IMG/VR virus record: IMGVR_UViG_3300048881_000780
DNA length: 64,000 bases
Source: a virus
Lineage: Duplodnaviria > Caudoviricetes
Reading direction: 5' to 3' (one strand)
A program made the translations under genes and the position numbers. Under the pieces are notes generated by a model, which was not told the DNA's origin, ran no database searches, and saw nothing but the letters and a program-made list of their open reading frames with translations. Positions 12,041-58,574 of the stretch are shown piece by piece (the stretch's first letter is position 1; each line of letters begins with the position of its first letter).

Positions 12041-12223
12041 ATGGACTACTATCTAATGATCTATATGGTTTTCTTTATTATTACCTTTTCTCTTTGTTGG
12101 AAATATCTAGAAAGTAAATCTCATAAAAACTCAAAAAAGGACAATCTTAACAAAATTGAAGATTTAAAAATTGAATTTGACCTAATGTTAAATGGTAAAT
12201 TATCAAGGAAGTTCTTTGAATAA
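12041..12223 (+). CDS. small membrane protein
   Basis: AAGGAG RBS, ATG 12041, single TM. Confidence 0.55.
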   Translation: MDYYLMIYMVFFIITFSLCWKYLESKSHKNSKKDNLNKIEDLKIEFDLMLNGKLSRKFFE

Positions 12224-12527
12224 GTTAGATCGATTAAAAAGACAAATTTCCAACCGTCTTAAACTAAATACTACTATTAATACAAGAGATACTAAGAAGA
12301 AGTATAATCATGCTTTCTCTATAGCTTTTTCTGTCAATACAGACAATGAAGGAAAAAGTGTTACAGAGGAAGAACTTCTCTGTGCGCTAGTCGGTAGAAT
12401 TAAGGATATCTCCGAGGGAAAGGACTGTGAAATGATTGAGGCATGTGGCCTTCCTCATGATACTTACTTAAATGATGAAAATGAGTCCTCCAAGTCGGAG
12501 AACCCTTGGTTAGCATCTCTTAAGTAA
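12216..12527 (+). CDS. hypothetical protein ending in NPWLASLK tag
   Basis: likely TTG start after AAGGAAG; C-terminal motif shared with BspA paralogs. Confidence 0.6.
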   Translation: MNKLDRLKRQISNRLKLNTTINTRDTKKKYNHAFSIAFSVNTDNEGKSVTEEELLCALVGRIKDISEGKDCEMIEACGLPHDTYLNDENESSKSENPWLASLK

Positions 12528-14670
12528 CTGAACACCTCTTCATTTTTTTAACGGCCTTAGCTTTAATTATTTTTTGAATAACTTTTCTTATGCCACGGCC
12601 ACCCATTTCAGAAATCTCTAAATCTGATATTTTCTCTAATTCCTTTTCAATGGTTAATTTTACAGTGATTCCTTTTTTCTTTAATTCACTTTTTAACATT
12701 TCATATTCATAGTTAGCTATTTTTAAAGCTATCTCTCTGTCCATAGAGTTAAAAGAAATAACCTCATCTAATCTATTTAAAAATTCTGGAGCAAAGCTTA
12801 ATGACAGCTCTTTCTCAACAGCTCCTTTATTAGAATATGATCCCCCAAGGGAGATATTCTTCTTTCTCTCAACAACGGCACCTACATTTGAAGTAAATAT
12901 AATTATTGAGTTGTTAAAATCAACTTTCATTCCTCTTGAATCTGTCAATTGCCCGTAATCCATGACTTGTAAAAGCGTCTGATGAATCTTTGGGTGTGCT
13001 TTTTCAATTTCGTCAAAAACAATAATAGATTGAGGATACTTCTTAATTTCTTCAGTAAGTCGACCACCCTCTTCGTACCCAACATAACCTGGTTCTGAAC
13101 CAATTAATTTAGAGAGACTTTCACTCTTACTATATTCAGACATATCAAATCTTGAAACTTTGTATCCAAGGTATTTTGCAATCTGAAGACAGAGTTCTGT
13201 CTTACCAACTCCAGTTGGGCCTCTAAAAAATAATTTAGCAAGTGGCCCTTTATTTCTTATTCCTAAGAATGATTCTTGTAACTTTTCGATAGTATGATCA
13301 ATAGCGTGATCTTGACCAAAAATTACGCTCTTAACTTGATTTCTAACACTCTCTAGAACGATAATTTCAGAGTCTCTACTTATCTTTCGACCTAACTGAA
13401 TCTCTAAATTCTCGTGAATATCATCAATGCTAGCTACCTTCTTAGATTTTATTTTCAATAAAACCCCTAGAGTATCGACAAAGTCTACCATTTTATCAGG
13501 AAAGTTCCTCTCCCTTTGGTGTTTATCTAAAAGATCATAAATTTGTTCATGTAACTTAGCTGGTAGCTCGAATTGGTGAAACTCTTCGTAGAGAGGTACT
13601 CTTTGTTCAGTAAGGAGTAGTACTTCTTTTTTATCCATAAGAGGAATATTTACTTTTGTAACTCTTCTTTTGATTGGGGATGATTTTTCAAAGAATTGAT
13701 TATATTCTTTAAAAGTAGTTGCTCCCAAGAACTTAAGCTTAGGATTTTCTAAGTATGGCTTTAAAATCGATGCTAAGTCATTGCTCTCAGAAGATCCACC
13801 AAGGCCAAAGATTGAATGCATCTCATCGATAAAGACAATCACTTTATTTCCCATCTTTAATAGATAGAATATCTCATCCATACAACCTTTAAATCTCTTT
13901 TCAAACTCTCCTCTATGAATTGATCCGGCCAACATTGAATGAATGTCTAGAGAAATCACCATGGAGTCGAATAGAGACTCATGAGAAGTTTTATTTATAA
14001 TTCTTTCAGTAAGAGAGTAAACTAAACTAGTTTTGCCACAACCGGACTCACCCACAAGTAGTGGATTGGCCTTTTCTTTTTTTAGTAAAACCTTTTCAAT
14101 ATTATCTATTACATCTACCCTCTCGTACATATTAGAGCGAATACCATTACTGATCTCTTTATTGATAACCGAAGAATAGTGATACAGATTTTCGCACTCA
14201 CTAAGGTGATCCTTTTTTAAAGGAGTTATTTCATTTTCTTTCGTTGCTATACTACTTAGTATTTTATTTACTTCTTCTTTAGAAAAAACATTGAATTCGT
14301 TATTATCTACAATATTTTCAAACAACACCATAACACTAGTTTCATCATAACTTAGAGATAGTGCGTCCTTTCGGGCCTTACAGAAAACTTCTTCTAAAGT
14401 AACATCTACCTTAACTCCAACGGCCTGACTCTTTAAGCGATCTGGAAAGAGTGATAAATCATATAGGTTCTTATATATACCTTCATAAATGTGAGACTTC
14501 GTTTTTATCTTTTTGTGAACCTTATCTAGATCAATATTATTTTCTTTTAATAAAGATATGATCTCAGGATATTCTAAGATAACCTGATAAATGTGAAATA
14601 TATTCACTCTTTTAATTGGTTGATTCTTAACTTTATCAATACTCTTTTCTATAACTTTATCTAAATTCAT
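12520..14670 (-). CDS. clpA: ClpA-like double AAA+ ATPase
   Basis: Walker A GESGCGKT and GPTGVGKT, Walker B VFIDE and VFDEIEKAH, GYVG pore loop, no M domain. Confidence 0.85.
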   Translation of the reverse strand: MNLDKVIEKSIDKVKNQPIKRVNIFHIYQVILEYPEIISLLKENNIDLDKVHKKIKTKSHIYEGIYKNLYDLSLFPDRLKSQAVGVKVDVTLEEVFCKARKDALSLSYDETSVMVLFENIVDNNEFNVFSKEEVNKILSSIATKENEITPLKKDHLSECENLYHYSSVINKEISNGIRSNMYERVDVIDNIEKVLLKKEKANPLLVGESGCGKTSLVYSLTERIINKTSHESLFDSMVISLDIHSMLAGSIHRGEFEKRFKGCMDEIFYLLKMGNKVIVFIDEMHSIFGLGGSSESNDLASILKPYLENPKLKFLGATTFKEYNQFFEKSSPIKRRVTKVNIPLMDKKEVLLLTEQRVPLYEEFHQFELPAKLHEQIYDLLDKHQRERNFPDKMVDFVDTLGVLLKIKSKKVASIDDIHENLEIQLGRKISRDSEIIVLESVRNQVKSVIFGQDHAIDHTIEKLQESFLGIRNKGPLAKLFFRGPTGVGKTELCLQIAKYLGYKVSRFDMSEYSKSESLSKLIGSEPGYVGYEEGGRLTEEIKKYPQSIIVFDEIEKAHPKIHQTLLQVMDYGQLTDSRGMKVDFNNSIIIFTSNVGAVVERKKNISLGGSYSNKGAVEKELSLSFAPEFLNRLDEVISFNSMDREIALKIANYEYEMLKSELKKKGITVKLTIEKELEKISDLEISEMGGRGIRKVIQKIIKAKAVKKMKRCSVT

Positions 14671-14883
14671 ATTAAATCCTTTTATCCATTTTATTTTTTA
14701 AGTAAGTGAAAAATAAAAAAATCTTTAGTTAAATAAAGTTAAAATAGATAAGAGTCCGTTTAAAAACGGATAATATTCGAGCTAAATAAATATCACTTAA
14801 TTACAATAATTAGTTGGCCCTTATGTGCGCAAAGCATCAAGTGAAAGACTAGACATAAGCAATCAAAATGCTACTATTTAAGG

Positions 14884-15534
14884 GTGTCAAATAATCGCTA
14901 CGAATTCATTATTCCAATCATAGAAGCACTCCTATTTGAGAAGGGAAAAATTCACTACAATGACATAATCAAGGCCATGAATCTTGAGATGACTCCCGAG
15001 ATGAAGGGTAATTTAACGCATATCATAGCTACCGATATTATTCCAAAAATGGTTAACTCATATCAATCACCGACTCATGGGATTGAAATACTGCACTTAG
15101 TTGAATTTCAAACACTAGAATTTGTAAGTAAGTCTAGATACTCTAGATTCTTAAGTCTAGATAAGACTACAATTGAGATGACTGATCGAACCAGAACAGT
15201 GTTGGCCTGCATTATCTTCAAAGGTCCAATTACAATGGGAGAGTTAACTAAGTATGTTGGTGAATGCTCTCACTTTGTTAGAATTCTCTGTCAGTTAAAT
15301 TATGTGAACTTTAAGTTAAATGGTAAGTGTAATTATATTTATTCCATTTCATCTAAATGTTTAGAGCTATTTAATGCTAATAGTACTAAACATCTAAAGG
15401 AAATGTTACTTGGGTTATCAAATGAAGTACCCTCTGATTATACTAGTAAAGACAGAGAAATCAAAAGCTTAAGTCGTATCAGCTCTAAGCTTAGAGACAA
15501 AAGAAGCAATATAAACATTAACACTATACGTTAA
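14884..15534 (+). CDS. scpB: ScpB-like winged-helix protein
   Basis: IIEALLF and VLACIIFKGPITMGEL match the two ScpB wHTH signatures. Confidence 0.6.
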   Translation: MSNNRYEFIIPIIEALLFEKGKIHYNDIIKAMNLEMTPEMKGNLTHIIATDIIPKMVNSYQSPTHGIEILHLVEFQTLEFVSKSRYSRFLSLDKTTIEMTDRTRTVLACIIFKGPITMGELTKYVGECSHFVRILCQLNYVNFKLNGKCNYIYSISSKCLELFNANSTKHLKEMLLGLSNEVPSDYTSKDREIKSLSRISSKLRDKRSNININTIR

Positions 15535-15766
15535 TATATACATATGATCTCATTATATGGGTATAAAAATACAGAAAAACCCTTTAAATTCAATTAGATA
15601 ATAAAACGGCCTTCGAGAATCCCTTGTGAGCCACTTTCCCCTCTACTCGAATCGATACTCCAATATTTAGTTTAAGAGGCCCATTTCCCCTTATCTGGCC
15701 TCGAGCATGTTCATTTATAACACCTCGTGTTATAATATATTACACAACACTAGGAGTTGCATAGAT

Positions 15767-16378: not shown

Positions 16379-16954
16379 TTATCTCTTCATTGCAAACTTA
16401 GGATGTTTCTTTAGAAATTTAGATTTTTTATAACTAAGAGAGAAGTGTTTTCTTAAAATTCTTCTTTTTGAGAGAAATCTATTTGGATAAAATATGGCCT
16501 TACTGATCACTTGATTCTTTTTCTTGAGCCTTCTATAGGCGGTTGGCCCCTGGTTGTACATCATTAAAGATTCAAGTAGATCGTTTGTGTAATTTTTTTG
16601 TAAGTACTTTAAGTAATAGGTTCCCAAAATGATATTTAGTCTTGGTTTTTTCCAAGGGCACATTTTCTTTCCAAGATTCTTTTCACATAATTCCACAGCT
16701 GTTCTTGGCATAATTTGAGTTAAACCATAGGCCCCAACATTAGATTTAGCATTCTTCTTAAAACCTGACTCAATCCAAATTAAGCTCGCTATATCATATG
16801 GATCTAATTTAAACTTGATGGCCGCTTCAAAGATATACTTTTCATATAAGAATAGGCCTTCAACAACACTGGAAGGTAATTCTTTCTGTAGTTCGTTATT
16901 GGCAAAAGAACTTTTCAAATTAATCAATAATAGTAATGCTATAAGTATTTTCAT
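16379..16954 (-). CDS. lytic transglycosylase (SLT family)
   Basis: signal peptide; IES catalytic Glu, GAYGLTQIMP, YNQG motifs. Confidence 0.9.
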   Translation of the reverse strand: MKILIALLLLINLKSSFANNELQKELPSSVVEGLFLYEKYIFEAAIKFKLDPYDIASLIWIESGFKKNAKSNVGAYGLTQIMPRTAVELCEKNLGKKMCPWKKPRLNIILGTYYLKYLQKNYTNDLLESLMMYNQGPTAYRRLKKKNQVISKAIFYPNRFLSKRRILRKHFSLSYKKSKFLKKHPKFAMKR

Positions 16955-18390: not shown

Positions 18391-18391
18391 T

Positions 18392-39845: not shown

Positions 39846-40313
39846 ATGAAATATTTTGCGGGAATAGGCAGTAGAAAAACTCCTAATCATATTCTAGAGA
39901 TTATGGAGCAGATATCTGAAAAATTTACAAGTAAAGAATATACCCTTCGCTCTGGAGGGGCCTTGGGTGCGGATCAAGCATTTGAAAGAGGATCGTCTCT
40001 TAAGGAAATATTTTTAGCTAAAGACGCTACTCAAGAGTCAATTGATCTAGCTCTAGAGTATCATCCAAACCCTGGGGCCCTTAGAAATATGGGGAAATAT
40101 GCTGTTGGCCTGGCCGGTAGAAATATGCAAATAGTTTTAGGTCTAAACCTTGATAAACCTGTGGAGTTTATAATTTGTTACACAAAAGATGGTGAATTAA
40201 CAGGAGGAACTGCTCATGCTATCAGACTGTGTCTTGATAGGGGTATTCCAGTTTTTAATCTTGGAATACCTGGAGAGCTTGAAAAGTTAAGACTACTCTA
40301 TTTAAACTTATAG
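39846..40313 (+). CDS. phage-type SLOG/DprA-like nucleotide-binding protein
   Basis: YFAGIGSRKTP, LRSGGALGAD, RN..VLG, GGTAHA, IPVFNL. Confidence 0.75.
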   Translation: MKYFAGIGSRKTPNHILEIMEQISEKFTSKEYTLRSGGALGADQAFERGSSLKEIFLAKDATQESIDLALEYHPNPGALRNMGKYAVGLAGRNMQIVLGLNLDKPVEFIICYTKDGELTGGTAHAIRLCLDRGIPVFNLGIPGELEKLRLLYLNL

Positions 40314-40532
40314 AATTTCTAATGATTGCAACCAAAGATTATTCTTCTTTTTTAATTTTGGATACCTAGTTTGAAAAGTCTTTTTATTTCTTTTAATCAA
40401 TTCTCTTTTTATTAGCAGAATAGACTCCTCTGTTTTTTCTTTAAACTCCAGAGAGTCTCCATTTTTTGCTTTAATTAAAAAATCTAAGAGTATCTTTAAT
40501 TCATATGTTGTCATCTTTAATAATTCTTTCAT
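40308..40532 (-). CDS. small protein ending in NLWLQSLEIL tag
   Basis: 74 aa; C-terminal motif shared with BspA paralogs. Confidence 0.5.
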   Translation of the reverse strand: MKELLKMTTYELKILLDFLIKAKNGDSLEFKEKTEESILLIKRELIKRNKKTFQTRYPKLKKKNNLWLQSLEIL

Positions 40533-45022: not shown

Positions 45023-45157
45023 ATGTCAAATAGAACTATACAAGAAGATTGTTCTCACTCTTTTAACTGTGATGGTTTTTGCGAGTACTGTGGAATATCA
45101 GAGCACGATTACGAATCATCATGCTGTAGCGGCGAGGAGATTGGTCGTTATGAATAA
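45023..45157 (+). CDS. 44-aa Cys-rich zinc-finger-like peptide not in ORF track
   Basis: GAGGT RBS; MSNRTIQEDCSHSFNCDGFCEYCGISEHDYESSCCSGEEIGRYE. Confidence 0.55.
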   Translation: MSNRTIQEDCSHSFNCDGFCEYCGISEHDYESSCCSGEEIGRYE

Positions 45158-46424
45158 GACTTCTCCCTTTATTAGTACATGGAAAATTATAGATAAGAGA
45201 ATTACTTTTCCTTTTAAGAGAAGTGCTAATATTAATTGCACTATCGACTGGGGAGATGGAACGCAATCTCATGTTACTAACTACTTTGATAAGAATAATA
45301 CTCACATCTATAAAGAAAATGGTGAGTATGAAATTAGTATTGTCGGAGATATATTCGAGCTTGATATAAAGCTTGAGGAAAGTGCGAGAATAGTTAAAGT
45401 TTCATCTATGGGTAGATGCTCTTGGAGAGTTTTTAAAGCAATGTTTTGTGAATGTCTGTATCTAAGAGAGTTTAACTCTGGAGACTGTGACTCTTCCTAT
45501 ATAAGCGATATGTATTCTATGTTTAACGGTTGTAAGAGCTTAAAAAAGGTAGTTATTGATTCTTTTGATACTTCAAATGTTTTTGATATGGAATTTATGT
45601 TTGCTAATTGTGAAAACCTAAATTCCTTGCAATTAAAAAACTTTACAAATGAAAGTGTTGTTACAATGCGAGGAATTTTTGAAGGACTCTCAAAGTTAAA
45701 AAGATTAAACTTATCAGACTTTAAGACTCCTAGGGTGCAGATTTTTTCTAGTATGTTTTCGAGTTGTACCAGCTTAAAGAAACTAAACTTAAAATCCTTT
45801 AATACGAGTAATGCTAAATCAATGATTAGTATGTTTAATGCTACTGTATCTCTAGAAAGTCTCGATATCTCTACTTTTCAAACTGGAAACGTTATAGATA
45901 TGCGCTCCATGTTTAATCGCTGCTATGTAAGTGAGCTTAAACTAGATCACTTTGACACGTCATATGTATCATCGATGGAAAATATGTTCAGAGGAATGAT
46001 CAATCTCAAAGAGATAGATATTTCAAATTTTAATATTAAAAATGCTCTATCTCTTCATGGATTATTTAATTCTTGCTCTAGTCTTAAAAAAATAAATTTT
46101 GGAGAAATTAATACCTCAAGAGTTAGAGATTTAAGCTATATGTTTAATAATTGTAGCTCTCTTGAATCCTTGGACTTATCTACCTTTGAGACCTCAAGAG
46201 TTCAATCGATGGATAATATGTTTTACTCTATTCCAGAAAAGTTAAAGGTTGATATAACTCACTTTGATTTTGATAAATTAGAGCAAAATCCGTTCAGGTT
46301 CACTAAAAGTAAGCTTATAATAGATAGTAGGTATAAAAAACACTTTAAAGAGTCTGAAGCTAAAGGTGTAGAATTTGGGGTCAATAAGAGAAGGCATCCC
46401 TGGTTCAAATCATTGTACGCTTAA
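45150..46424 (+). CDS. BspA/DUF285 LRR protein 1
   Basis: GAGGAG RBS, start MNKTSPFISTW; IDWGDG PKD-like domain; FxTSxVxxMxxMF repeats; ends HPWFKSLYA. Confidence 0.9.
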   Translation: MNKTSPFISTWKIIDKRITFPFKRSANINCTIDWGDGTQSHVTNYFDKNNTHIYKENGEYEISIVGDIFELDIKLEESARIVKVSSMGRCSWRVFKAMFCECLYLREFNSGDCDSSYISDMYSMFNGCKSLKKVVIDSFDTSNVFDMEFMFANCENLNSLQLKNFTNESVVTMRGIFEGLSKLKRLNLSDFKTPRVQIFSSMFSSCTSLKKLNLKSFNTSNAKSMISMFNATVSLESLDISTFQTGNVIDMRSMFNRCYVSELKLDHFDTSYVSSMENMFRGMINLKEIDISNFNIKNALSLHGLFNSCSSLKKINFGEINTSRVRDLSYMFNNCSSLESLDLSTFETSRVQSMDNMFYSIPEKLKVDITHFDFDKLEQNPFRFTKSKLIIDSRYKKHFKESEAKGVEFGVNKRRHPWFKSLYA

Positions 46425-46448: not shown

Positions 46449-47174
46449 ATGACGGCCTTTGTTAGTAGATGGAATCTTGAGAGAGGATATTTTAAGGCGC
46501 CAGTTATTCGAGATAAGTACACTGAAGTAACTATTGACTGGGGAGATGGCCACAAATCTAATATCTCAGGAGTTGGCAAAGATCAGTATTATCATGAATA
46601 TAAGACTTGCGGTAAATATACTATCAGTATTACTGGAAAAACGAGAGCGATTTCAATTTACCCACGAGATAAACAACTTCTTTTAAGTGTATTATCAATC
46701 GGAGACTTGGGATTAAATACACTACATGGAGCCTTTAAAGATTGTGTAAATATGACTTCATTTACTGGTGAAATTGAAAACTGCATCAGTGATTTATCTT
46801 GGATGTTTGGGTATTGCTTGAAATTATGGTCTGTTGATATAAAAAGTAAGCATGGTAATGCTATAAGAAGCTTTGGAGATATGTTCTATAGTTGTCAATC
46901 TCTAACAAAGGTTAATCTTAGTAAGCTAAATATAGATAATGATAATACTTACTTTTCGAATGTCTTTGGAGGTTGTCTTAAAATTAAGCAAATTACAGCC
47001 CCCTACACTACCGAAGAGAAGAGCGTTTACTTTGGAGACAGTCTTGAGTTGTGTAGAAATAACGTAAAAATTAATGGTGGTGGACTTATAGAGAAATATC
47101 TAAAAGATGAACTTTCAAGAGTCAGTGTAATTCACAATAAGTATGATGGTAATTGTGGGGTTGGACATGGGTAA
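46449..47174 (+). CDS. BspA/DUF285 LRR protein 2 (short, no C-terminal tag)
   Basis: FVSRW, IDWGDG, few degenerate repeats. Confidence 0.8.
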   Translation: MTAFVSRWNLERGYFKAPVIRDKYTEVTIDWGDGHKSNISGVGKDQYYHEYKTCGKYTISITGKTRAISIYPRDKQLLLSVLSIGDLGLNTLHGAFKDCVNMTSFTGEIENCISDLSWMFGYCLKLWSVDIKSKHGNAIRSFGDMFYSCQSLTKVNLSKLNIDNDNTYFSNVFGGCLKIKQITAPYTTEEKSVYFGDSLELCRNNVKINGGGLIEKYLKDELSRVSVIHNKYDGNCGVGHG

Positions 47175-48546
47175 GAAAAAAAATAAGGAAAGTTGCCCTC
47201 TTACTAGATTTAGAAAAGTTTATGGAAATTACAATAGTGAAAGTATTTTAAAGGCCTGTGAAAAAGGTGACTTTAAAATGTTATTAGATATAGTCACAAG
47301 TGAAGAACTTGAAGGTATGCCAAAAGGATATGTACTAATGTCCATTCCTAAATTTGACAAAGAGCGTATCTACTATGATTTTATAAATAACTTTCAAGAT
47401 AGCGACTCCCCCTATTTAAGAGAAGCGTGCGTAAAAGCTCTCTATGAATATTTAGATACTGAAAACTCTAAAGAAGTTGATTCTTTTAAACTTAAAATCA
47501 CTAATATTAGATATAACTCTAAAGACTTCCCTGGTGTCGTCAAGAGAATTGATTCTATATTTAAGTGGCTTGGGTCAAGTGAAGATCAAGATAAACTAGA
47601 ACTTGCTAAAGATACCATTAGGTATTTACTTAAATATATTGTCGAAAAAGATGAAGAACATCACGATTATTCAAAGAGTAGCGTTGATAATCATCAACTC
47701 TATAGTGAAGTTGAAAAGGAAAGAATTTCAACATTTTTAATGAATAATAGAAAATTTAATACGACAACCAGAGATTTATTTAGAAGCTTGTATCAGGATC
47801 ACTATGTTGATCTTAATTTTGTAACACTTGAGAAGATATTTGGAAATCTGGATAGCTTTAGAAGTAACTTAAAGAAAAAGAGTTTACTTGTCCGAGGATG
47901 TGACTATAGTGACAAAGAGGATAGTTTAAGAATTCAAACAACATTTGATAATCTAGAGAGAAAGCTTAGAGAACATCACGGTATAAAATTCTCTTTTAAA
48001 TCTATCTGCATGGAAGAAGTCGATACAGTTGATCTCATAATGAAGCTCACTAGAAATAGAATGAGAGGACTTTTAGACTTAGAGTACTTTTTTTTAGAAG
48101 AGCTTGAAATCTGCAAATCTCTAATGATTGATGGCCTTGAAATATTAGAGAGTGCCAATAGAGGTTATCACGGCAATGGGGAGAATATCCCTTATGGAGT
48201 ATTTTTAGCTAAGTCTTTTCCAAAGCACTGGAAACTTCCAACTGAGATGACAATGAATTTAACAACTCGGGACACAGTTAGCTCTATTTATCACAAAAGT
48301 GATAATCCAATAGTTGACTCCTTGAAGGATAAATTCAAAGAAGATGACGTAAATGCCATAAAGGAGTTCTTAAGAACCCAGATTGATGACTTTGATAAGA
48401 AGTTAGCAAATAGTCACCCGGCGCTTGAGAGTAATTATCAACTGCTGGCCCATAGACTTAGAGATTTTTGTAATTACTACGATATTGAATATACCAGGGC
48501 CATAGAATCATTTTTTAAAGGCCCTGAGAGTTTTAGGGAGTACTAA
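47167..48546 (+). CDS. hypothetical protein, possible N-terminal HEAT-like repeat
   Basis: FQDSDSPYLREACVKAL; long helical ORF. Confidence 0.55.
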   Translation: MGKKKNKESCPLTRFRKVYGNYNSESILKACEKGDFKMLLDIVTSEELEGMPKGYVLMSIPKFDKERIYYDFINNFQDSDSPYLREACVKALYEYLDTENSKEVDSFKLKITNIRYNSKDFPGVVKRIDSIFKWLGSSEDQDKLELAKDTIRYLLKYIVEKDEEHHDYSKSSVDNHQLYSEVEKERISTFLMNNRKFNTTTRDLFRSLYQDHYVDLNFVTLEKIFGNLDSFRSNLKKKSLLVRGCDYSDKEDSLRIQTTFDNLERKLREHHGIKFSFKSICMEEVDTVDLIMKLTRNRMRGLLDLEYFFLEELEICKSLMIDGLEILESANRGYHGNGENIPYGVFLAKSFPKHWKLPTEMTMNLTTRDTVSSIYHKSDNPIVDSLKDKFKEDDVNAIKEFLRTQIDDFDKKLANSHPALESNYQLLAHRLRDFCNYYDIEYTRAIESFFKGPESFREY

Positions 48547-50157: not shown

Positions 50158-50298
50158 TTACCAATCTAATTTTGAATCTTGCTCGTCATTATCAAAATCA
50201 GCACTAAGCCAGGTATTATCACCGATTGACTCAAAGAAGGCTTCTTTAAGCTTCTCTTTTTGTTCATTTGTTAGTTTCTCATTACTTTTTTTATTCAT
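50158..50298 (-). CDS. 46-aa small protein with internal NTWLSA motif, not in ORF track
   Basis: MNKKSNEKLTNEQKEKLKEAFFESIGDNTWLSADFDNDEQDSKLDW fills the gap in a minus-strand run. Confidence 0.55.
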   Translation of the reverse strand: MNKKSNEKLTNEQKEKLKEAFFESIGDNTWLSADFDNDEQDSKLDW

Positions 50299-50314: not shown

Positions 50315-50533
50315 TTAACCAAACCATTTACGATAAAGTATTGTGGCATCTCTCGTATCCCTTTCAGTTTCTCCAAACTGAGAGGTGTAATCCGAACCAA
50401 ACATTGAAATTTGATCTCTCAGATAGGACATAAAATCCCTCTTAGATTTACTAGCTGAATCACCACTTATAAAAAGAGCGATCATTTGAATAATGAATTC
50501 TTCATCAATATAGTGATCTACTCTAACTCTCAC
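50315..50533 (-). CDS. small hypothetical protein
   Basis: GTG start overlapping upstream stop. Confidence 0.5.
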   Translation of the reverse strand: MRVRVDHYIDEEFIIQMIALFISGDSASKSKRDFMSYLRDQISMFGSDYTSQFGETERDTRDATILYRKWFG

Positions 50534-50778
50534 TAGGATACCTTTTTAAAGTTGTTGATCATGCGAATACCAAAACTCTCATCATGGGGAGTTTTAAATT
50601 TAACAGCAGTTTTACCGCTCTCCCATGGTAAAATGTCGATAACTTCTAGGTGAGTCTGTTCTTTTACTTCTTTTTGGTAATATCCTTCATCTTTATTATT
50701 TTTTAAAATAACGATATCCCCGATCTCAATAGCATCGGAAGATCCCATCTCTAATGAAGTAACCCATGAGTTTGACAT
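50533..50778 (-). CDS. small SH3-like protein starting MSNSWVTSL
   Basis: GGAG RBS at ATG 50778; IEIGDIVIL. Confidence 0.55.
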   Translation of the reverse strand: MSNSWVTSLEMGSSDAIEIGDIVILKNNKDEGYYQKEVKEQTHLEVIDILPWESGKTAVKFKTPHDESFGIRMINNFKKVS

Positions 50779-50835
50779 ATATTCTCCAGAGATATTAATA
50801 ATAACACTGTTAACGCAACATGTCAATATACATTT

Positions 50836-51814: not shown

Positions 51815-52834
51815 CTACGCCAATGCCTCTAACCAGGTATTAATGGGTTTGCTCTCACTGGCCCCATCAAATCCTTTAATAAACCTAAGAGACTTGGAAT
51901 TAAACGTAATATTACTTTTACACTGGTACAAAAAAGACTTTCTCTTAATATCATCAGAGATCGTAAATCCTGAGAAATTTACCTTTGGGGCCACAAAACC
52001 ATTAAACATATCTGCGATAGTGATTGCGGAATTGGATTTAAATCCACGTAGATCTAAATTTCTTTCAAGCGAACACCTTGAGAACATTTCTATAAAGTTT
52101 TGAGCTTTTTCAGTTTTAAAATTTGATAGATTAAGATTTTTAAAACTAGAATCCTGAAACATTCTCTCCATGGTTTTACAATTTCTAGTATTGAAATTTG
52201 AAAGGTCTAAATAATCTAAGTTAAGTTGAGAAAACATCGCAGTCATACAAAGAACTTTTTCTGTGTTAAATGATTTGATGTTCAGCGATTCGAGACTGTG
52301 CATCTCAGAAAACATATGTCCCATATAGAGAACATTAGCTGTGTTAAATGAACTTAAATCTAACCTTTCTAGAGAATAGAGTTCACTAAAGGTACCTGAC
52401 ATATCGTTTACATTTGAGGTGTCAATATTGAGAGTTAATTCCTTAATATTATGACATCTAATAAACATTTCAGAGATACTACTAACATTACTAGTATTAC
52501 AAGTTCCAGAGTTAAATTTTTTGAGATCGAAACAATTTGCAAAGCTATACCATAGATTTTCCCATTCGCAATCGCCAAGATTTTTTACCTCTATAAGGGT
52601 GGCACCTTCAACATTTGAAGATACCCAACTCTTTAAGTTTCCAGCTATTGAAATGGTATAAATACCAGCTGTCTTATAGGTGTGGGTTGCCTTGACGTTA
52701 CCAGTAATATTTTCTAAGTCAGATCCGTCTCCCCAGTCTATTAGTAAGTTGACATCTATTCCATTATTAGTGGGGAGAGTGATCTTATTGTCGCTACCAA
52801 TAGTTTGCCAGCAACTTACAAATGATTCTTTCAT
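51815..52834 (-). CDS. BspA/DUF285 LRR protein 3
   Basis: start MKESFVSCW after AAGGAAG; IDWGDG; repeats; ends NTWLEALA. Confidence 0.9.
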   Translation of the reverse strand: MKESFVSCWQTIGSDNKITLPTNNGIDVNLLIDWGDGSDLENITGNVKATHTYKTAGIYTISIAGNLKSWVSSNVEGATLIEVKNLGDCEWENLWYSFANCFDLKKFNSGTCNTSNVSSISEMFIRCHNIKELTLNIDTSNVNDMSGTFSELYSLERLDLSSFNTANVLYMGHMFSEMHSLESLNIKSFNTEKVLCMTAMFSQLNLDYLDLSNFNTRNCKTMERMFQDSSFKNLNLSNFKTEKAQNFIEMFSRCSLERNLDLRGFKSNSAITIADMFNGFVAPKVNFSGFTISDDIKRKSFLYQCKSNITFNSKSLRFIKGFDGASESKPINTWLEALA

Positions 52835-52857: not shown

Positions 52858-53967
52858 TCATGAAATAGACTCCAGCCAAGTGTTTTTAGTATCCTCTTGG
52901 TTTTGGTCTGTTGTGAATTGACTTCCTTCCTTGAAGTAATCTATATTTTTCTTATATCTCGTTTTTATTTTTACATTTGCTTTACTCTTATAGTGAACAA
53001 AGTTATGAAAGTTTGCGACAGCGCTAAATCTAAAATTTGATAAATCTATCTCTTTTAAATTATCTGAATAGAAAAATATTGCACCAAAATCTACGACATT
53101 AGATGTTTTAAATGATCCTAGATTTACTTCCTTTAAATTATCACAACATTTAAACATTGCTCTCATATCAGTGACACATTCAGTATTAAAGCTCGATAGA
53201 TCTAGCGACACTAGGCCCCTGCACTTTTCAAACATTCCCTGCATATCAAGGGCGCTATCAGTTCGCATGTGATCTAGATTTAAATTCTGTAAATTATAGC
53301 AATTTTTAAACATTCCTCTGAAACTTAAAACACTACCAGCATCAAATCTCTCTAAATCTAGAGAGAGTAAGTTATTCATGCCAGAGAACATTCGAGACAT
53401 TGTTGTAACATTAAAAACATCTAAGTTCCTTAAGTCGAGATGATTTATTCCGGATTTTCTAAACATAACTTTCATATTTTCAACAAATGAAGTATTCAAA
53501 TTATCAATATTTAAATTATTTAAATTAATAGTTTTGTGAAATAATCCTTCCATATTAATAACAGAGCTCGAGTCAAAGGTGGAGAGATCTATATCTGTAA
53601 GATTCTTACACCCATGAAACATATTTTTCATAGATGTAACATTTGAAGTATTACAGCTGCCACTGTTAAATTTTGTCAATGATTTACAGTTTTCAAAGGA
53701 TCCTGCGAAAGTTATCCAATCGCAATCACCAAGATCAAAAACTTTTACTACTTGTATGGATGGATAATCTAAAATATGCATGGCCTGAATCTTACCATAG
53801 AAGCAAATGGTATACTCTCCATTTTCTTCGTAGGTATGATCTAGCTCATTACTGGAAATGATTCCATCACCCCAATCTATAGCGAACTCTACGTCTGTTC
53901 TATGAAACTTAAGAGGGAGAGTTACACTACCCTTTTTCACACGCCAACTGGCCCTAAATGGTTTCAT
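52858..53967 (-). CDS. BspA/DUF285 LRR protein 4
   Basis: MKPFRASW; IDWGDG; repeats; ends NTWLESIS. Confidence 0.9.
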   Translation of the reverse strand: MKPFRASWRVKKGSVTLPLKFHRTDVEFAIDWGDGIISSNELDHTYEENGEYTICFYGKIQAMHILDYPSIQVVKVFDLGDCDWITFAGSFENCKSLTKFNSGSCNTSNVTSMKNMFHGCKNLTDIDLSTFDSSSVINMEGLFHKTINLNNLNIDNLNTSFVENMKVMFRKSGINHLDLRNLDVFNVTTMSRMFSGMNNLLSLDLERFDAGSVLSFRGMFKNCYNLQNLNLDHMRTDSALDMQGMFEKCRGLVSLDLSSFNTECVTDMRAMFKCCDNLKEVNLGSFKTSNVVDFGAIFFYSDNLKEIDLSNFRFSAVANFHNFVHYKSKANVKIKTRYKKNIDYFKEGSQFTTDQNQEDTKNTWLESIS

Positions 53968-54070
53968 TTTATCTATATTAATAACAAGCCTCTCTAGATT
54001 TGATATTAACATATTTTTTATTTTCTAACAAGTTGCGTTAAAAACAATCAATAATTAGACATAGTTAGAA

Positions 54071-54481: not shown

Positions 54482-54512
54482 TGCTACTCCTTTAAGTACT
54501 TATCGTAGAATG

Positions 54513-55454
54513 TCACTCTAGAGATTCTAGCCAGGTATTTCTTATTGATCCTGAGATTGCATTTGGAATATCGTGAAAATACAATTTCCCATTCTTTACT
54601 GGTAATAGTATTTTACAGAGGACATCACAAAATATACCAATATTAGATCCAGAAAAGTCAAAAGAGTATAACTTAAGTTTTTTAAGAGAGCTACACCCTC
54701 TAAACATATAATCCATATCATTTGCATTGCTAGTATCAAAGAAATCTACGTTTAATCTTAAAAGAGAATTGCAATGAGTGAACATATTTCTAAATGATTC
54801 TACACTGTAAGTCTTAAAGTGGTTTAGATCTAGAGACTCTAGACTGTGGCAATCTTTAAACATCTTCTCCATTGATTCAACTTTTGAAGTATTAAAATTT
54901 GATATATCTAAGAAGTTAAGAGCACTAGCTCCTTCAAACATCGACTTCATTGATTTAGTGTTTTTGGTACAAAATGAAGATAAGTCTAGATATTTAAGCC
55001 TTTTACAATTGGAAAAAAGATGCCTCATATTCTTTACATTATATGTATGAGAGTTCGATAAAGAGACTCTCTCTAGAGATTCACACTCATCAAACATAAA
55101 GCTCAAATCTTTTACTGTTTTTGGAATTGCTCCATTATAACTTTCGAGCATTTTACAACCATAGAAGGCATTTGATAAATCCTGCCAATGGCAGTCACCT
55201 AAATGATGAACGGCCAAAAGTTCACACGATGAGACTTTATAAGATCTCCAAAGTCCTAATTTTCCAGATATTGTTAATGTGTAATTGCCATTAATTTCAT
55301 ATATATGAACGGCGTTTGGGTCATCGTAGGAAGTTATATGATCACTTTTCCCATCGCCCCAGTCGACAGTAAAGTCGTAATCAAACCCCTCAAATAGAGG
55401 GAGAGCTAAAACTCTCTTTTGGACTAGCCAGGTACTAACAAAGTTTTTTGACAT
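54513..55454 (-). CDS. BspA/DUF285 LRR protein 5
   Basis: FVSTW, VDWGDG, repeats; ends NTWLESLE. Confidence 0.9.
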   Translation of the reverse strand: MSKNFVSTWLVQKRVLALPLFEGFDYDFTVDWGDGKSDHITSYDDPNAVHIYEINGNYTLTISGKLGLWRSYKVSSCELLAVHHLGDCHWQDLSNAFYGCKMLESYNGAIPKTVKDLSFMFDECESLERVSLSNSHTYNVKNMRHLFSNCKRLKYLDLSSFCTKNTKSMKSMFEGASALNFLDISNFNTSKVESMEKMFKDCHSLESLDLNHFKTYSVESFRNMFTHCNSLLRLNVDFFDTSNANDMDYMFRGCSSLKKLKLYSFDFSGSNIGIFCDVLCKILLPVKNGKLYFHDIPNAISGSIRNTWLESLE

Positions 55455-55568
55455 AGAATAAATCCTCTATGTCTATTATAAAGGAATACTTAGTGAGATT
55501 TCGTTTTTAACTTTTAAGTAAGAGATGCGTCTATTTCGTTATATTAATGATAGTTAGGCATATAAATT

Positions 55569-56513
55569 TTAGCTAATGGCCCTAAGCCAACTATTACAGT
55601 TTTTATTATCCGTGACGATATTAAGATTTGATGATGCAAACATCTCTAGATACTTCCTCGATACCTTCACTAAAGCATTAGAGTTAGTTATTTTCGATTT
55701 TGCTAGGGACTCATCGAACTCGAAGTTTTTAAGATTAATTTTCTTAAGTTTAGGAGTGTCATAGAACGCCTTTGTAATATCTTTAAGTTTGGAGAACTTT
55801 CTGTGTCCAAAGTTGATGGATTCGAGGTTCCTACAGTTAAAAAATGCTCTATTCATATGATTAATTTTATGGGGCCTAAAATTTGATAAATCAAGTTTTC
55901 TTATTCCCGAAGAGCTAAAGACGCACGAAAAGCCAATGAGATTTTCCGTATTAAATTCACTAAGATCGACTTCTCTTAAACTTTTAGTACCGTGAAATGC
56001 TGAAAACATTTGAGTTAAAGAAGATGAATTTATTTTACCAAAATCAACATTTTCTAACTTTTCGCAGCCACGAAACAAGCTAGACATAATTTTAACATTA
56101 GAAAAATCAAAGGTTGATAAATCTGCGGTTTCAAGTTTTTCACATTCTGAAAATAAACCGTTTAAATTCTTTATTTTGATCGTATCACAATTGCCTGCGA
56201 CAAACTTTTTAAGGTTAATACAGTCACTAAATAAAGATCCGACATTATACCAATTTAGATCACCAAATTGAAGAACCTCAATCAACTTAGCTTTATCTCT
56301 TAGCTTTATAAATAGTCCTCTGTGAATTGACCCTGATACTCTTATTGTGTAAATTCCAGGTTCTTTATACTTATGAACAGCTGAGTTCTTGCTATTTTGA
56401 TCAATACTCCCATCACCCCAATCAATTGTAAGCCCTGAGGCATCTTGTAAGAAAAAAAGCGTCTCATTACTATTGGTAATTTGCCATCGACTAATAAAAT
56501 CAAAGTTACTCAT
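55569..56513 (-). CDS. BspA/DUF285 LRR protein 6
   Basis: FISRW, IDWGDG, repeats; ends NSWLRAIS. Confidence 0.9.
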   Translation of the reverse strand: MSNFDFISRWQITNSNETLFFLQDASGLTIDWGDGSIDQNSKNSAVHKYKEPGIYTIRVSGSIHRGLFIKLRDKAKLIEVLQFGDLNWYNVGSLFSDCINLKKFVAGNCDTIKIKNLNGLFSECEKLETADLSTFDFSNVKIMSSLFRGCEKLENVDFGKINSSSLTQMFSAFHGTKSLREVDLSEFNTENLIGFSCVFSSSGIRKLDLSNFRPHKINHMNRAFFNCRNLESINFGHRKFSKLKDITKAFYDTPKLKKINLKNFEFDESLAKSKITNSNALVKVSRKYLEMFASSNLNIVTDNKNCNSWLRAIS

Positions 56514-56649
56514 TTTAAATTCTCTTTCTTCTTATTGGCAATTATGATGTGACCACTACTTGAATAGTGATAGCTTGGAACTGGGAGCTTTTTAAATAAG
56601 CTCATTATTTTAAAATTCCTTAAAAATTTAAAGAGTTTCATAGTTATCC

Positions 56650-56862
56650 TTAGATTTGATAATCAGTAAGAATTTTAAGAGGGAGATAGAACCATCCCAT
56701 AAGAAAAGACCCTATCGTCTTTAAAAACAATTCTAAGAGATTACTGGCCTCATCTAGCTGACTGAACATATAGACACCACTAAATAACATATAAAGAAAT
56801 ACCCATAATTGTTCATGGGTTTCACTTTGACTTACTTTGTATGAATTTAGTTGCTTCTTCAA
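56650..56862 (-). CDS. small membrane protein, tandem paralog B
   Basis: shares LY..YM..L..S.L.E..GW.Y.PL..L with 56877 gene. Confidence 0.6.
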   Translation of the reverse strand: MKKQLNSYKVSQSETHEQLWVFLYMLFSGVYMFSQLDEASNLLELFLKTIGSFLMGWFYLPLKILTDYQI

Positions 56863-56876
56863 ATCTTCATCCTTAA

Positions 56877-57086
56877 TTAAAATATTGCATTATATAACAG
56901 ATTTAGTGGCATATATAACCAACCAGTAAAGTAACAAGATATAAAGAGAGCTAAAGATTCTATTAAGCTCGATTGCGACTCTAAGTTTTGGTACATATAG
57001 TGACATCCAATTATTTTATATAATGTTATGGCAACATCTAGCTTACTCTCTCTAAACTGAAATTCTTTTGATGCGATACTTGTCAT
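56877..57086 (-). CDS. small membrane protein, tandem paralog A
   Basis: GAGG RBS; GWLYMPLNLL. Confidence 0.6.
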   Translation of the reverse strand: MTSIASKEFQFRESKLDVAITLYKIIGCHYMYQNLESQSSLIESLALFISCYFTGWLYMPLNLLYNAIF

Positions 57087-57164
57087 ATTAACCTCTGTAC
57101 TAAGTTCTATCTATATTTTATAATATTTAACATATTATGTCAAAAAATAAACTATGGATACAGT

Positions 57165-57365
57165 ATGGTTTTTGAAATATTAATAATATGGATACTCCTT
57201 GGGTCACTTTCTTGTAATATTGCTTGGATGTTACAAATGAGGGCAGCTAGTTCTGTAGATATGCGCTATAGTCCCTATTTATTGGGCATTATGTTGTTTT
57301 TAGTGTTCGGTCCATTCTCGCTACTGATTAGTAAAATATTTAAAAGGATTAAAAATGCAAAATAG
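57165..57365 (+). CDS. small two-TM protein
   Basis: hydrophobic, ends in GPFSL plus basic tail. Confidence 0.55.
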   Translation: MVFEILIIWILLGSLSCNIAWMLQMRAASSVDMRYSPYLLGIMLFLVFGPFSLLISKIFKRIKNAK

Positions 57366-57729
57366 AGTTTCAAGTATTACAGAAGCTAGAGATATAATTG
57401 ATAAATTTCACGCTCGAAAAATAATGATTCATAATGGGAAAAGGTGGAGTGTTGCCTCAGTGAAAAGAATTATCCCTATGATTAGTAATTACCCAAAAGG
57501 GCCAATAGATGATATTGAAATCCTAATTAATAAAGAAAAGAATCACTACTTTTCAGCACTCTGTTTATTTGGAAAAAGATCATGGGTTAAAGATATTAGG
57601 ATTTGTGATGATTATAATAGAAATTCCCTAAAGATGGTAGCAATTCATCCTACTCCTAAAAATGATGAGATGATCATTAGAGTGGCCAGATTTATTAAAT
57701 TAATTTACTTAAAACAAAAGACGAAATGA
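57355..57729 (+). CDS. hypothetical protein
   Basis: overlapping start/stop in operon. Confidence 0.55.
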   Translation: MQNRVSSITEARDIIDKFHARKIMIHNGKRWSVASVKRIIPMISNYPKGPIDDIEILINKEKNHYFSALCLFGKRSWVKDIRICDDYNRNSLKMVAIHPTPKNDEMIIRVARFIKLIYLKQKTK

Positions 57730-58574
57730 GTTCTTTTAGATTTGTAATAAATATTCCCAATGATGATACAGTCGTAAGTATGAGAGTTTATGAAGAGTAT
57801 CGTTATAGTTTTAAAGTTAATTGGGGAGATGAATGCTTTGGTAGTTACACTTATCGAAACAAGAGTCGCAACATAATACATCATACTTTTGAAAAAGCTG
57901 GAGAATATACTATTGTAATGAGTGGCAGGATTGGCAAAATCAGAGCGGAGGAAACTTTATTTAAATATATAACTGAGGTTATAGATTTAGGAGATTGTAA
58001 GTGGCAGGATTTATCATTCATGTTCGCTGAATGTAATAATATGGTTAGATTTAAAGGTGGCATTACTTCTGATGTTAAATCAATGGATCATATGTTCACA
58101 GATTGCAAGAAACTGAGTTTTTTAGATATTTCTAGTTTTGACACTTACAATGTAACTAATATGAGAGGTATGTTTACAGGACTCTCCAAACTCAGTCATA
58201 TTGACGTTAGTCACTTCAACACCTTCAATGTTACGGATATGTCGCATATGTTTAGAGGTATGAAATCACTTAGACATTTAAGCATATCTAACTTTCGATT
58301 TAAAGGCCCTGTCAATATGGGCCTTAGTTTTGATGATTTGAACTCCTGTGAGGTATTGGATCTAAGACACTTAGATTTTAGTAAGATAGATCTATACTTA
58401 ATTAATGATGTTAGAAGTTATCAGAACTGTTTTAAGTATGGACCAAAGAAGGTAATTGTTAAGCTAGAGGATTTTTGTAAGTACTTTAAGGGTAATCCGC
58501 GCGTTTACGGATTAGTTGAAGATAGAAGAAAGAATAGCTGGTTAAACTCGCTAGATATCGAGGATTTCAAATGA
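57726..58574 (+). CDS. BspA/DUF285 LRR protein 7
   Basis: VNWGD, FDTYNVTNMRGMF repeats; ends NSWLNSLDIEDFK. Confidence 0.88.
   Translation: MSSFRFVINIPNDDTVVSMRVYEEYRYSFKVNWGDECFGSYTYRNKSRNIIHHTFEKAGEYTIVMSGRIGKIRAEETLFKYITEVIDLGDCKWQDLSFMFAECNNMVRFKGGITSDVKSMDHMFTDCKKLSFLDISSFDTYNVTNMRGMFTGLSKLSHIDVSHFNTFNVTDMSHMFRGMKSLRHLSISNFRFKGPVNMGLSFDDLNSCEVLDLRHLDFSKIDLYLINDVRSYQNCFKYGPKKVIVKLEDFCKYFKGNPRVYGLVEDRRKNSWLNSLDIEDFK

Follow-up and report, generated by a model that had tools for sequence, protein, structure and literature searches.

Eight proteins encoded in the window, i.e. the whole 64 kb stretch of DNA that we analysed, end with nearly the same short peptide, which raises the question of what this peptide does. 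The window belongs to a giant, plasmid-like element (361 kb, 32% GC) from an uncultivated source, a distant relative of the Bdellovibrio plasmid pBdHM1; L001 and L019 are other pieces of the same element. The peptide, hereafter called the tag, has the seven-residue consensus N-x-W-[LI]-x-[SA]-[LI], with [NH]-x-W-[LIF]-x-[SA]-[LI] as its full range including variants. The tag holds up as a real feature that is portable and conserved at the protein level, lies outside the repeat fold of its main carriers and occurs only in proteins devoid of signal peptides. It very probably serves as an element-specific address tag common to otherwise unrelated soluble proteins.

Tagged proteins of the element

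A six-frame scan of the 64 kb with the pattern [NH].W[LFVIM].[SA][LI] retrieved the eight C-terminal tags claimed in the sequence-only reading, all at their places and each in a real ORF, with the stop codon 1 to 6 residues further on. Only two other matches were obtained, one in a junk frame at 45403 and one, NSWVTSL, at 50752-50772, near the N-terminus of an 81-aa protein. With six proteins of L001 and one of L019, the eight C-terminally tagged proteins make 15 verified carriers, i.e. ten DUF285 proteins and five orphans of 74, 111, 132, 172 and 174 aa.

The tagged proteins of the window described as six LRR paralogs are indeed six, and their repeats are more precisely of the DUF285/BspA type, with a PKD-like head (PF03382, E-values for the carriers from 5e-49 to 4e-18). 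The first, at 45147..46424 (+ strand; E = 4.6e-49), ends with HPWFKSLYA (tag at 46395-46415); its alignment used the start at 45147, and the scan used the longer listed ORF from GTG 45069. Four others are on the - strand, at 51815..52834 (NTWLEALA, tag at 51821-51841), 52858..54012 (NTWLESIS, 52864-52884), 54513..55454 (NTWLESLE, 54519-54539) and 55569..56513 (NSWLRAIS, 55575-55595). The last one, at 57726..58574 (+ strand), ends with NSWLNSLDIEDFK and has the longest post-tag tail, with six residues after the tag (58533-58553). A seventh, short paralog of 241 aa (46449..47174, + strand), whose end is overlapped by the ORF at 47143-48546, has no tag.

The two orphans of the window are a 74-aa protein (40308..40532, - strand) ending with NLWLQSLEIL (tag at 40320-40340) and a 111-aa protein without signal peptide (+ strand) ending with NPWLASLK (tag at 12501-12521). 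For the latter, the tag and the gene end at 12527 had been read correctly, but the start has to be moved from 12216 to the ATG at 12192. This orphan has no match in Pfam or PHROG; the DpnD/PcfM fold, like small phage proteins, is a weak structural lead (TM-score by query <0.5).

Two near matches also occur in the window. A 46-aa ORF with no family match (50158..50298, - strand) contains NTWLSA 15 residues before its end, a partial motif that lacks the last position. The 81-aa orphan (50533..50778, - strand) begins with MSNSWVTSL, the motif occupying residues 3-9. Its start is the ATG at 50778, with a GGAG Shine-Dalgarno sequence 6 nt upstream; the alternative TTG start at 50826 was rejected, as it lies inside a TTGACA-17-TATTAT promoter. 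The chance expectation for a tag-like motif at an N-terminus is approximately 0.003, as estimated from the rate of 3.9e-6 per position, and this N-terminal copy is likely to be functional.

At that same rate, chance predicts ~0.004 C-terminal tags (0.0036) for the final 14 residues encoded by 113 genes, and 14 were found, i.e. in about one in eight proteins (Poisson P = 6e-46). When all three-residue patterns at the C-termini were scanned without bias, N-x-W-L ranked first (9 seen versus 0.02 expected). As proposed from the sequence, conservation is at the protein level. The codons of the tag differ synonymously (AAC/AAT for Asn, TTA/TTG/CTA/CTG/CTT for Leu, TCT/TCA/TCG for Ser and GCA/GCC/GCT for Ala), the linkers that precede it do not align between carriers, and the DNA 3' of the stop codons is not conserved. 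Within the tag, the Trp never varies and the Asn hardly does, and only Ser or Ala is found at position 6.

The tag is not part of the repeat fold

The AlphaFold2 model of the 54513..55454 protein has a mean pLDDT of 89.6, with values >90 in the repeat body. The tag is modelled as a free, loose two-turn helix of low confidence (residues 307-312; pLDDT <50 over residues 308-313) that does not pack against the repeat domain. None of the 116 listed DUF285 homologs on other contigs has the tag. An LRR capping element can therefore be ruled out, and chance does not account for the occurrences in non-LRR proteins. The presence of the tag in DUF285 proteins and at least five unrelated orphans bears out the proposal that a short helical peptide serves here as a portable signal for docking or sorting.

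Among the solved folds closest to this model are extracellular receptor LRR domains as well as LRR proteins of bacterial cell surfaces. Lipoprotein signal peptides are found at the start of most cellular homologs that share the DWGDG head. The repeat bodies of the ten DUF285 carriers belong to the same family as the DUF285/PARCEL/BspA-type LRR surface proteins (PF03382; PMC2996958), but the copies of the element have the tag instead of a signal peptide or another sorting domain. The carriers are soluble proteins without transmembrane segments, and none of the 15 has an N-terminal hydrophobic segment. Among the 113 genes, such a segment is predicted for none of the 14 carriers, in contrast with 26 other genes (hypergeometric P = 0.02).

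Secretion genes of the element and its relatives

The element codes for a 1164-aa ATPase of the VirB4/TraC family (hhalign probability 99.0%, E = 4e-18 with F-type TraC), whose gene follows those of a pilin-like protein of 98 aa and a VirB3-like protein of 117 aa. This ATPase also matches the protein in the VirB4 position of the contig L018 (blastp E = 1.5e-95), which itself has a weak P-loop_TraG match. The FtsK-like ATPase of the element (630 aa) has 129 relatives, and in two related contigs its gene is directly followed by genes for pilin-like, VirB3-like and VirB4-like proteins; in L016, one of these two contigs, the run continues with a TrbI/VirB10 gene. One carrier gene, at 13047-13445 of L019, is located ~750 bp upstream of a gene for a 578-aa protein, whose paralog is encoded by the gene after VirB4. 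The gene for the 578-aa protein is followed by one for a 1102-aa protein with hydrophobic stretches. Most carrier genes are 30-150 kb away from the secretion genes, a distance that speaks against a link with secretion. So does the situation in pBdHM1. Among annotated relatives, only this plasmid shares the VirB4-like and FtsK-like genes, and it has neither the tag nor any other enriched C-terminal motif.

A possible recruitment signal for type IV secretion

Two mechanisms had been proposed from the sequence, F-box-like docking of adaptors to a common hub and export. The second is the better fit, based on the lack of signal peptides, the lipoprotein homologs and the set of type IV ATPases. We tentatively propose that the tag might recruit its carriers for export or transfer by the type IV secretion system of the element, a possibility that we hold to be short of probable. 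The tag would form a two-turn amphipathic helix with the Asn as N-cap, the Trp and the two Leu/Ile residues sharing one face and the small Ser/Ala lying beside it. Presented on an unalignable linker at the extreme end of the protein, it would be recognized by a single shared partner, with the substrate-recruiting part of the type IV secretion system of the element as the likeliest one. The FtsK-like ATPase, encoded at the head of the secretion operon in relatives, is the prime candidate receptor. The tag would thus mark the variable DUF285 binding proteins and the small orphans for export from the donor cell.

There are precedents for the recognition of C-terminal signals by FtsK-type and coupling ATPases (PMC6954902, PMC8740702). 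In type VII secretion, the LxxxMxF tail of EsxB fits a pocket on ATPase3 of EccC, an FtsK/SpoIIIE-type secretion ATPase (PMC6954902). Like the tag, it is short and helical, stands at the very end of the protein and has three hydrophobic residues spaced apart, and the sequence that is read varies from system to system. The consensus of the tag is N-x-W-L-x-S-L, however, its carriers are not WXG100 helical hairpins, and the machine here is of the VirB4/TraC type rather than an ESX system, with binding of the tag only a candidate interaction. The XVIPCD of antibacterial type IV effectors, which binds the all-alpha domain of VirD4, is similarly a single conserved C-terminal module found on many unrelated substrates of one type IV system (PMC8740702). 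Nevertheless, with its ~120 residues, several motifs and Gln-rich tail it makes up a whole folded domain, in contrast with the seven residues of the tag, and the candidate receptor of the tag is FtsK-like and not a canonical VirD4.

Other features argue against secretion. The N-terminal copy MSNSWVTSL is unexpected for a signal that acts strictly at the C-terminus, and passage through a type IV channel would demand the unfolding of the repeat solenoids. To our knowledge, type IV signals are fuzzy or whole domains, and none is a crisp 7-mer.

Other possible roles of the tag

Docking on an AAA+ protein, i.e. on the N-domain of a ClpA-like ATPase or on the MoxR/CobT-like vWA pair, appears unlikely. 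The repeat proteins would then deliver substrates as adaptors, or the carriers would themselves be the proteins to be unfolded or degraded. The layout of the carriers resembles that of SspB, in which a folded binding domain is connected by a flexible linker to a conserved C-terminal peptide that docks on the unfoldase ClpX (PMC9963277), but SspB is a single adaptor and not a family of ~30, and the element, where such docking is only a candidate, showed no zinc-binding N-domain of the ClpX type. A helix usable at either end would suit a docking peptide. The two ClpA-like ATPases of the element have unusual N-domains of ~200 residues that are not Clp_N according to Pfam and cannot be aligned to one another. 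One of them, a candidate hub, is a double-AAA+ protein of 716 aa (12520..14670, - strand) with 195 N-terminal residues not recognized as Clp_N. As had been noted, its gene overlaps that of the 111-aa orphan tail to tail; the overlap is 8 nt long, and the two genes are convergent and form no operon. On L001, three repeat genes with the tag run in the same direction as the vWA and MoxR genes and are interspersed with them, although the CobS/CobT-like pairs of related contigs have no tagged neighbours. By tblastn, pBdHM1 has neither the tag nor vWA or MoxR matches, and its weak ClpA-like match is at clpX_2 alone, which is consistent with such a tether. In contrast, both ClpA-like proteins read I-S-L at what we take to be the place of the ClpP-docking I-G-L/F loop, and no ClpP was seen in the ~112 kb read. 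PKD-like and BspA-type modules are typical of surface proteins and not of cytoplasmic adaptors, and we know of no precedent for thirty-odd adaptors of one bacterial unfoldase. As for PepA, it has no tie to the tag other than proximity.

It is improbable that the tag, as a short amphipathic helix, keeps soluble proteins attached to the inner side of the cytoplasmic membrane, as the terminal helices of FtsA, MinD and MreB do. The C-terminal helix of Escherichia coli FtsA (residues 405-420, GSWIKRLNSWLRKEF; PMC9098913) does contain the core of the tag, as NSWL and SWI, and the carriers are soluble and devoid of transmembrane segments. Relative to the FtsA and MinD helices, however, the tag is half as long, with just 7-8 residues, three hydrophobic side chains and polar residues upstream, and it has no consistent basic flanks. 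Membrane-targeting amphipathic helices work at either terminus, which fits the N-terminal copy, but lipid-binding helices conserve amphipathicity and not exact residues. The invariant Trp, the near-invariant Asn and the restriction to Ser/Ala at position 6 rather point to a protein groove. Docking onto a particle or filament made by the element, such as a pilus tip, another surface organelle or, should the element be a huge phage, a capsid, would provide an interchangeable set of binding heads, and a signal peptide is not required for incorporation into a particle in the cytoplasm; it seems very improbable. Phage-type DNA metabolism is represented on the element, for instance by T4_Y16D, a DNMK-like kinase and RuvC, but no capsid, portal, terminase or tail family was found in the ~112 kb read, the window is absent from the viral contig collection, and the backbone is akin to that of a Bdellovibrio plasmid and carries type IV secretion genes. 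The capsid-targeting sequence of phage T4 is likewise one short terminal label on many proteins, but it differs in sequence, is N-terminal and is cleaved. Lastly, the absence of any functional signal, with the tag arising by chance recurrence, as a repeat cap inherited by paralogs or as a translated DNA element such as a terminator or a recombination site, is already contradicted. As ten of the 15 carriers are paralogs, shared descent contributes to the count. Nevertheless, the other five are non-paralogous orphans, and the P value of the enrichment, the synonymous codon variation with unconserved downstream DNA, the 116 untagged homologs and the unpacked tag of the AlphaFold2 model all argue against it.

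If the tag does recruit its carriers to the type IV secretion system, the destination of the tagged proteins would be the surface of the donor, or the recipient or prey cell.

Occurrence and conservation of the tag

Eight real ORFs in the window terminate in [NH]-x-W-[LIF]-x-[SA]-[LI] followed by 1 to 6 residues. Translation of the ten ORFs named by the sequence-only reading and a six-frame scan confirmed all eight of the C-terminal tags that it had claimed. Six of these ORFs code for repeat proteins (stops at 46424, 51815, 52858, 54513, 55569 and 58574), and the remaining two for orphan proteins of 111 residues (stop at 12527) and 74 residues (minus strand, ending at 40308). Besides these carriers, two motif matches were found in 128,000 six-frame residues, one of them in a junk frame. 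The other, NSWVTSL, occupies residues 3-9 of an 81-aa protein and represents an N-terminal copy. The real start of that protein is ATG 50778, with GGAG 6 nt upstream; the TTG upstream of it falls within a TTGACA-17-TATTAT promoter. The latter is located immediately 5' of the gene, at positions 50779-50830 of the window, and includes GTTAACAGTGTTAT.

Database searches placed the window on a 361,129-bp JGI contig, and the same element is present in Logan contigs of run SRR35531919. A 145-kb contig spans the region from -100 kb to +45 kb relative to the window. The element was read from approximately -36.5 kb to +64.6 kb of the window, together with L001, a 10.8-kb piece of the same element, which amounts to roughly 112 kb. 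L001 harbours six further carriers, i.e. four repeat proteins and orphans of 172 and 174 residues. Another carrier of 132 residues, ending in NNSWLKSLI, is encoded ~29 kb upstream of the window, in the part of the 145-kb contig that was read.

In a set of 113 genes, 14 C-terminal matches were observed, while 0.0036 were expected from the residue frequencies of the element itself (P = 6e-46). N-x-W-L also ranks first when every pattern of three residues within the 12 C-terminal positions is counted without bias, with 9 occurrences for 0.02 expected. The codons for Asn, Leu, Ser and Ala of the tag vary freely, and the DNA 3' of the stop codons is unrelated among carriers, which argues that selection acts on the peptide and not on the DNA. 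No shared motif was seen upstream of the carrier genes. The charge of the flanking residues is inconsistent and the conserved part is limited to seven residues; what follows them varies in both sequence and length (K, EIL, YA, A, S, E, DIEDFK and others). The general idea of the earlier reading, a portable terminal signal, thus holds, given the enrichment over chance, the unrelated carriers and the conservation at the protein level. The tag is very probably a portable terminal address read by one partner. A limited search of papers revealed no description of this motif.

Among the best 120 database matches to a repeat protein, the tag was found only on three proteins of the same contig, namely the query and two paralogs, and on none of the listed DUF285 homologs from other contigs. 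It was not found on L010 and L011, the contigs of CobT-like relatives, on L016 and L018, two contigs with FtsK-like relatives, or across the whole of pBdHM1, a Bdellovibrio plasmid distantly related to the element. Searches of viral contigs with the CobT-like and VirB4-like proteins gave no match, nor did a megablast of the repeat cluster against phages. An exact 44-mer from the window had no match in either of two collections, viral_contigs and metagenome_contigs. On L011, an unrelated 277-kb ENA contig found through the CobT-like protein, four small proteins (12210-12533, 12641-12991, 12984-13193 and 16669-16923) end in A-S-x-x-Y-[KR]-x-[LI]-[KRM]-G-[LI]. These may be members of a small paralog family, or the ending may be another terminal tag.

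Carrier proteins

The repeat proteins match the DUF285/BspA-type LRR family PF03382 at E values of 5e-49 to 4e-18, and the six carriers of the window score 65.9-165.6 bits for a cut-off of 25. They share a PKD-like head of ~90 residues with a DWGDG motif. Repeats, which differ in number, and a short cap follow, and a linker of 8-14 residues that cannot be aligned leads to the tag. AlphaFold2 models a repeat protein as an LRR solenoid, and LRR proteins of Bacteroides and Treponema are found among the solved structures closest to it. Bacterial cell-surface LRR proteins and the LRR domains of extracellular receptors are among these closest folds. The pLDDT values of the body are >90, and confidence drops through the linker. 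The tag itself is modelled as a free helix (residues 307-312, pLDDT <50) outside of the body, which contradicts the idea that it serves as a repeat cap.

A seventh, short DUF285 paralog (46449-47174) has no tag. Its 3' end is overlapped by the gene of a 467-aa orphan protein (47143-48546), and it may be a truncated copy.

The orphan carriers belong to no Pfam or PHROG family, and the pairs that were compared share no significant similarity outside of the tag; any paralogy between the two L001 orphans would be very distant (E 0.039). Sub-threshold Atlas leads point to a TPR-like fold for the 172-aa orphan, and to small phage proteins or a DpnD/PcfM fold for the 111-aa orphan.

None of the 14 carriers among the 113 genes has an N-terminal hydrophobic segment, in contrast with 26 non-carriers (P = 0.02 for the lack of overlap), and the fifteenth carrier is likewise devoid of one. 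No Sec, lipoprotein or Tat signal peptide was found in the carriers, so that in 15 of 15 cases the C-terminal tag is borne by a protein without a Sec signal. Most cellular homologs with the DWGDG head start with a lipoprotein signal peptide. The lack here of a signal peptide that is usual in homologs suggests that a normally exported module has lost its Sec signal and gained the tag. Five lipoprotein homologs with the DWGDG head (P0012, P0035, P0043, P0049 and P0116 of the homolog list), one of them named from a Bdellovibrionota MAG, have a conserved C-terminal ending of their own, C-x-Q-G-G-S-P-G-T-G-T-[FL]-F-G-K-T-C-N.

Secretion genes and nature of the element

An upstream cluster codes for a 98-aa pilin-like protein, a 117-aa VirB3-like protein, a 270-aa protein, an 1164-aa ATPase and a 559-aa exported protein. 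The 1164-aa ATPase has no direct Pfam or PDB sequence match. A profile built from it and its pBdHM1 homolog matches F-type TraC with an hhalign probability of 99.0% (E 4.2e-18 over 627 columns), and the protein is similar to the 975-aa protein in the VirB4 position of L018 (blastp E 1.5e-95), which has a weak P-loop_TraG match. The 1164-aa protein therefore represents the VirB4/TraC-family ATPase of a type IV secretion system. Tblastn searches against plasmids identified its homolog on pBdHM1 of Bdellovibrio sp. HM001 (24% identity, E 3e-33) and gave weak matches to TraC genes, and in a word-based search of 5.8 billion proteins it matched only itself. This VirB4/TraC-like ATPase (L004:12389-15880, on another piece of the element) harbours an insertion of ~130 residues (~residues 575-700) in which charged heptads abound and a C-terminal extension of ~140 residues, neither of which aligns to TraC in the profile comparison.

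The 98-aa protein is composed of a signal peptide and two hydrophobic helices. As in the relatives, its gene and that of the 117-aa protein lie 5' of the VirB4-like gene; sequence similarity is weak (E 0.018). Two exported paralogs, of 578 residues (L019:14188-15924, on a further piece of the element) and 559 residues (L004:15825-17504), share a near-identical end consisting of a charged coil and P-x-I-P-x-x-P-x-T-F. The gene of the latter follows the VirB4-like gene, and that of the former precedes the gene of a 1102-aa protein with hydrophobic stretches.

The candidate coupling ATPase is a 630-aa FtsK-like protein. It matches FtsK_SpoIIIE at E 3.8e-5, just below the cut-off, and has no VirD4 or TraG Pfam match. 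An exhaustive search collected 129 relatives, and 24 of the 43 aligned family members reach FtsK_SpoIIIE. FtsK-like homologs head the secretion operon in the related contigs L016, L017 and L018, and in two related contigs the gene lies directly 5' of the pilin-like, VirB3-like and VirB4-like genes. The VirB4-like proteins of these relatives match P-loop_TraG, weakly in L018, and a TrbI/VirB10 gene is found further on in L016. Several members of the FtsK-like family (P0175-P0225) have N-terminal membrane helices, and many have acidic tails with D-F or D-F-[LM]-x-x-F, such as DDDDFMAQF; that of the element (L004:1369-3258) ends in EAPKLDF. These tails recall those of TraD and SSB, whose acidic C-termini bind partner proteins.

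The element has a GC content of 32%. The window codes for an SSB, a lytic transglycosylase, a Dcm methylase, SprT-like proteins, a NADAR-Macro protein, a DUF3846 protein, a GmrSD C-terminal domain, an RNase H, a DprA-like protein, a histidine kinase and its response regulator, an M17 aminopeptidase, an S49 peptidase and a ClpA-like ATPase. Upstream of the window, and close to it, the element has a second SSB gene (at ~2 kb) and a second ClpA-like gene. Positions 1-50000 read like an anti-defence or leading-region island, with the SSB, Dcm, DUF3846, NADAR-Macro, GmrSD and DprA-like proteins, two SprT-like proteins, one also matching a phage metallopeptidase family, and a dNMP-kinase-like protein; the DprA-like protein belongs to SLOG and the NADAR-Macro protein is a fusion.

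No virion families were found in the window or the roughly 112 kb read. pBdHM1 shares with the element the FtsK-like ATPase, the protein encoded after VirB4, a 641-aa lipoprotein, SSB, RuvC and DUF2227. This plasmid relative, together with the divergent secretion genes, indicates that the element is a giant, plasmid-like replicon whose type IV secretion system is divergent. Its host probably belongs to Bdellovibrionota or a similar group.

Candidate partners of the tag

We tentatively favour the secretion system as the partner, with the FtsK-like ATPase as a possible receptor. The carriers are Sec-less proteins that resemble surface or exported modules. The element carries its own secretion machine, and one carrier gene adjoins the secretion genes. 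In addition, there are precedents for the recognition of C-terminal signals by FtsK-type and coupling ATPases, namely of LxxxMxF of EsxB by EccC (PMC6954902) and of XVIPCD by VirD4 (PMC8740702). The tag shares with the known type IV translocation signals its C-terminal position on Sec-less proteins, but it has neither the net basic tail of VirF and VirE2, nor the Glu-rich block of Dot/Icm substrates, nor the size of an XVIPCD domain. Several observations count against secretion: pBdHM1 has the machine and no tag, one copy of the tag is N-terminal, and most carriers are encoded far from the secretion genes. To our knowledge, the motif is also crisper than any type IV signal, which again speaks against this reading. 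A complex prediction for the FtsK-like ATPase (43-row alignment) and the tagged tails (14-row alignment) yielded a score of 0.00, which is no evidence either way.

The earlier reading had proposed a hub centred on the ClpA-like ATPase, with export as the alternative, and the latter fits better. A sharper form of the hub idea, in which the tag would dock the carriers on the two ClpA-like ATPases in the manner of SspB, appears unlikely. It agrees with the anatomy of the carriers, which like SspB have a folded domain, a flexible linker and a conserved terminal peptide, and with the unusual N-domains of the ClpA-like proteins. An ssrA-like degron would have fixed last residues such as LAA, whereas the tails after the tag vary and one copy is N-terminal. 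A membrane-targeting helix like those of FtsA or MinD is quite improbable. The tag resembles the FtsA membrane helix GSWIKRLNSWLRKEF, but the likeness is limited to a local NSWL string; with 7-8 residues, three hydrophobic positions and polar residues upstream, the tag falls short of the ~10-15 residues of such helices, which often contain basic residues. A simple lipid anchor would be longer, and would not require such invariable key positions. Docking to a virion or a pilus is more improbable still. The capsid-targeting sequence of T4 is N-terminal, removed by the prohead protease and encoded alongside virion genes, whereas the tag is C-terminal and virion families were not found in the ~112 kb.

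The two ClpA-like paralogs (window 12520-14670 and L002:4150-6393, the latter on another piece of the element) are 32% identical in their AAA+ rings. Their N-domains of ~200 residues do not align, and neither matches Clp_N of Pfam. Both have I-S-L at what we take to be the position of the ClpP-docking I-G-L of ClpA. In two related contigs, a gene for a single-ring ClpX-like AAA+ ATPase is among those located 3' of the VirB4-like gene (L016:13102-14187 and L018:19925-21079), and pBdHM1 has a second clpX, clpX_2 (98557-99726); the element has two ClpA-like ATPases instead. Secretion systems of this family may regularly be accompanied by a Clp-type unfoldase. A link between the ClpX-like proteins of the relatives and the ClpA-like proteins of the element was rejected, as their similarity is only that of AAA+ proteins in general.

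Potential biological significance

Address tags as short and as well delimited as this are rare, and they are of practical value: they show which of the proteins of an unknown element act together, and they can be moved onto reporters. In the present case, the replicon is giant and very isolated, and the tag unites proteins that otherwise defy annotation as a single functional group. We know of no large adaptor family for a bacterial unfoldase so far, and if the tag tethers clients to the Clp-like ATPases, this would be the first. If a secretion ATPase reads it, the tag would be a minimal, sequence-defined type IV signal and would suggest that the DNA of large conjugative elements travels with a repertoire of binding proteins.

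In its most far-reaching form, the secretion reading pictures a giant conjugative element whose bacterial host is a predator or a parasite. The seven-residue terminal helix would recruit its carriers to an FtsK-type coupling ATPase. Small proteins and repeat binders that diversify would be sent through the type IV channel alongside the DNA, and the transported binders may neutralise the defences of the recipient. That tagged binders are shipped with DNA in this manner is, taken as a whole, rather improbable. If true, it would represent a plasmid counterpart of the capsid targeting of injected proteins in phages, and the known type IV signals would gain a new class with a crisp definition.
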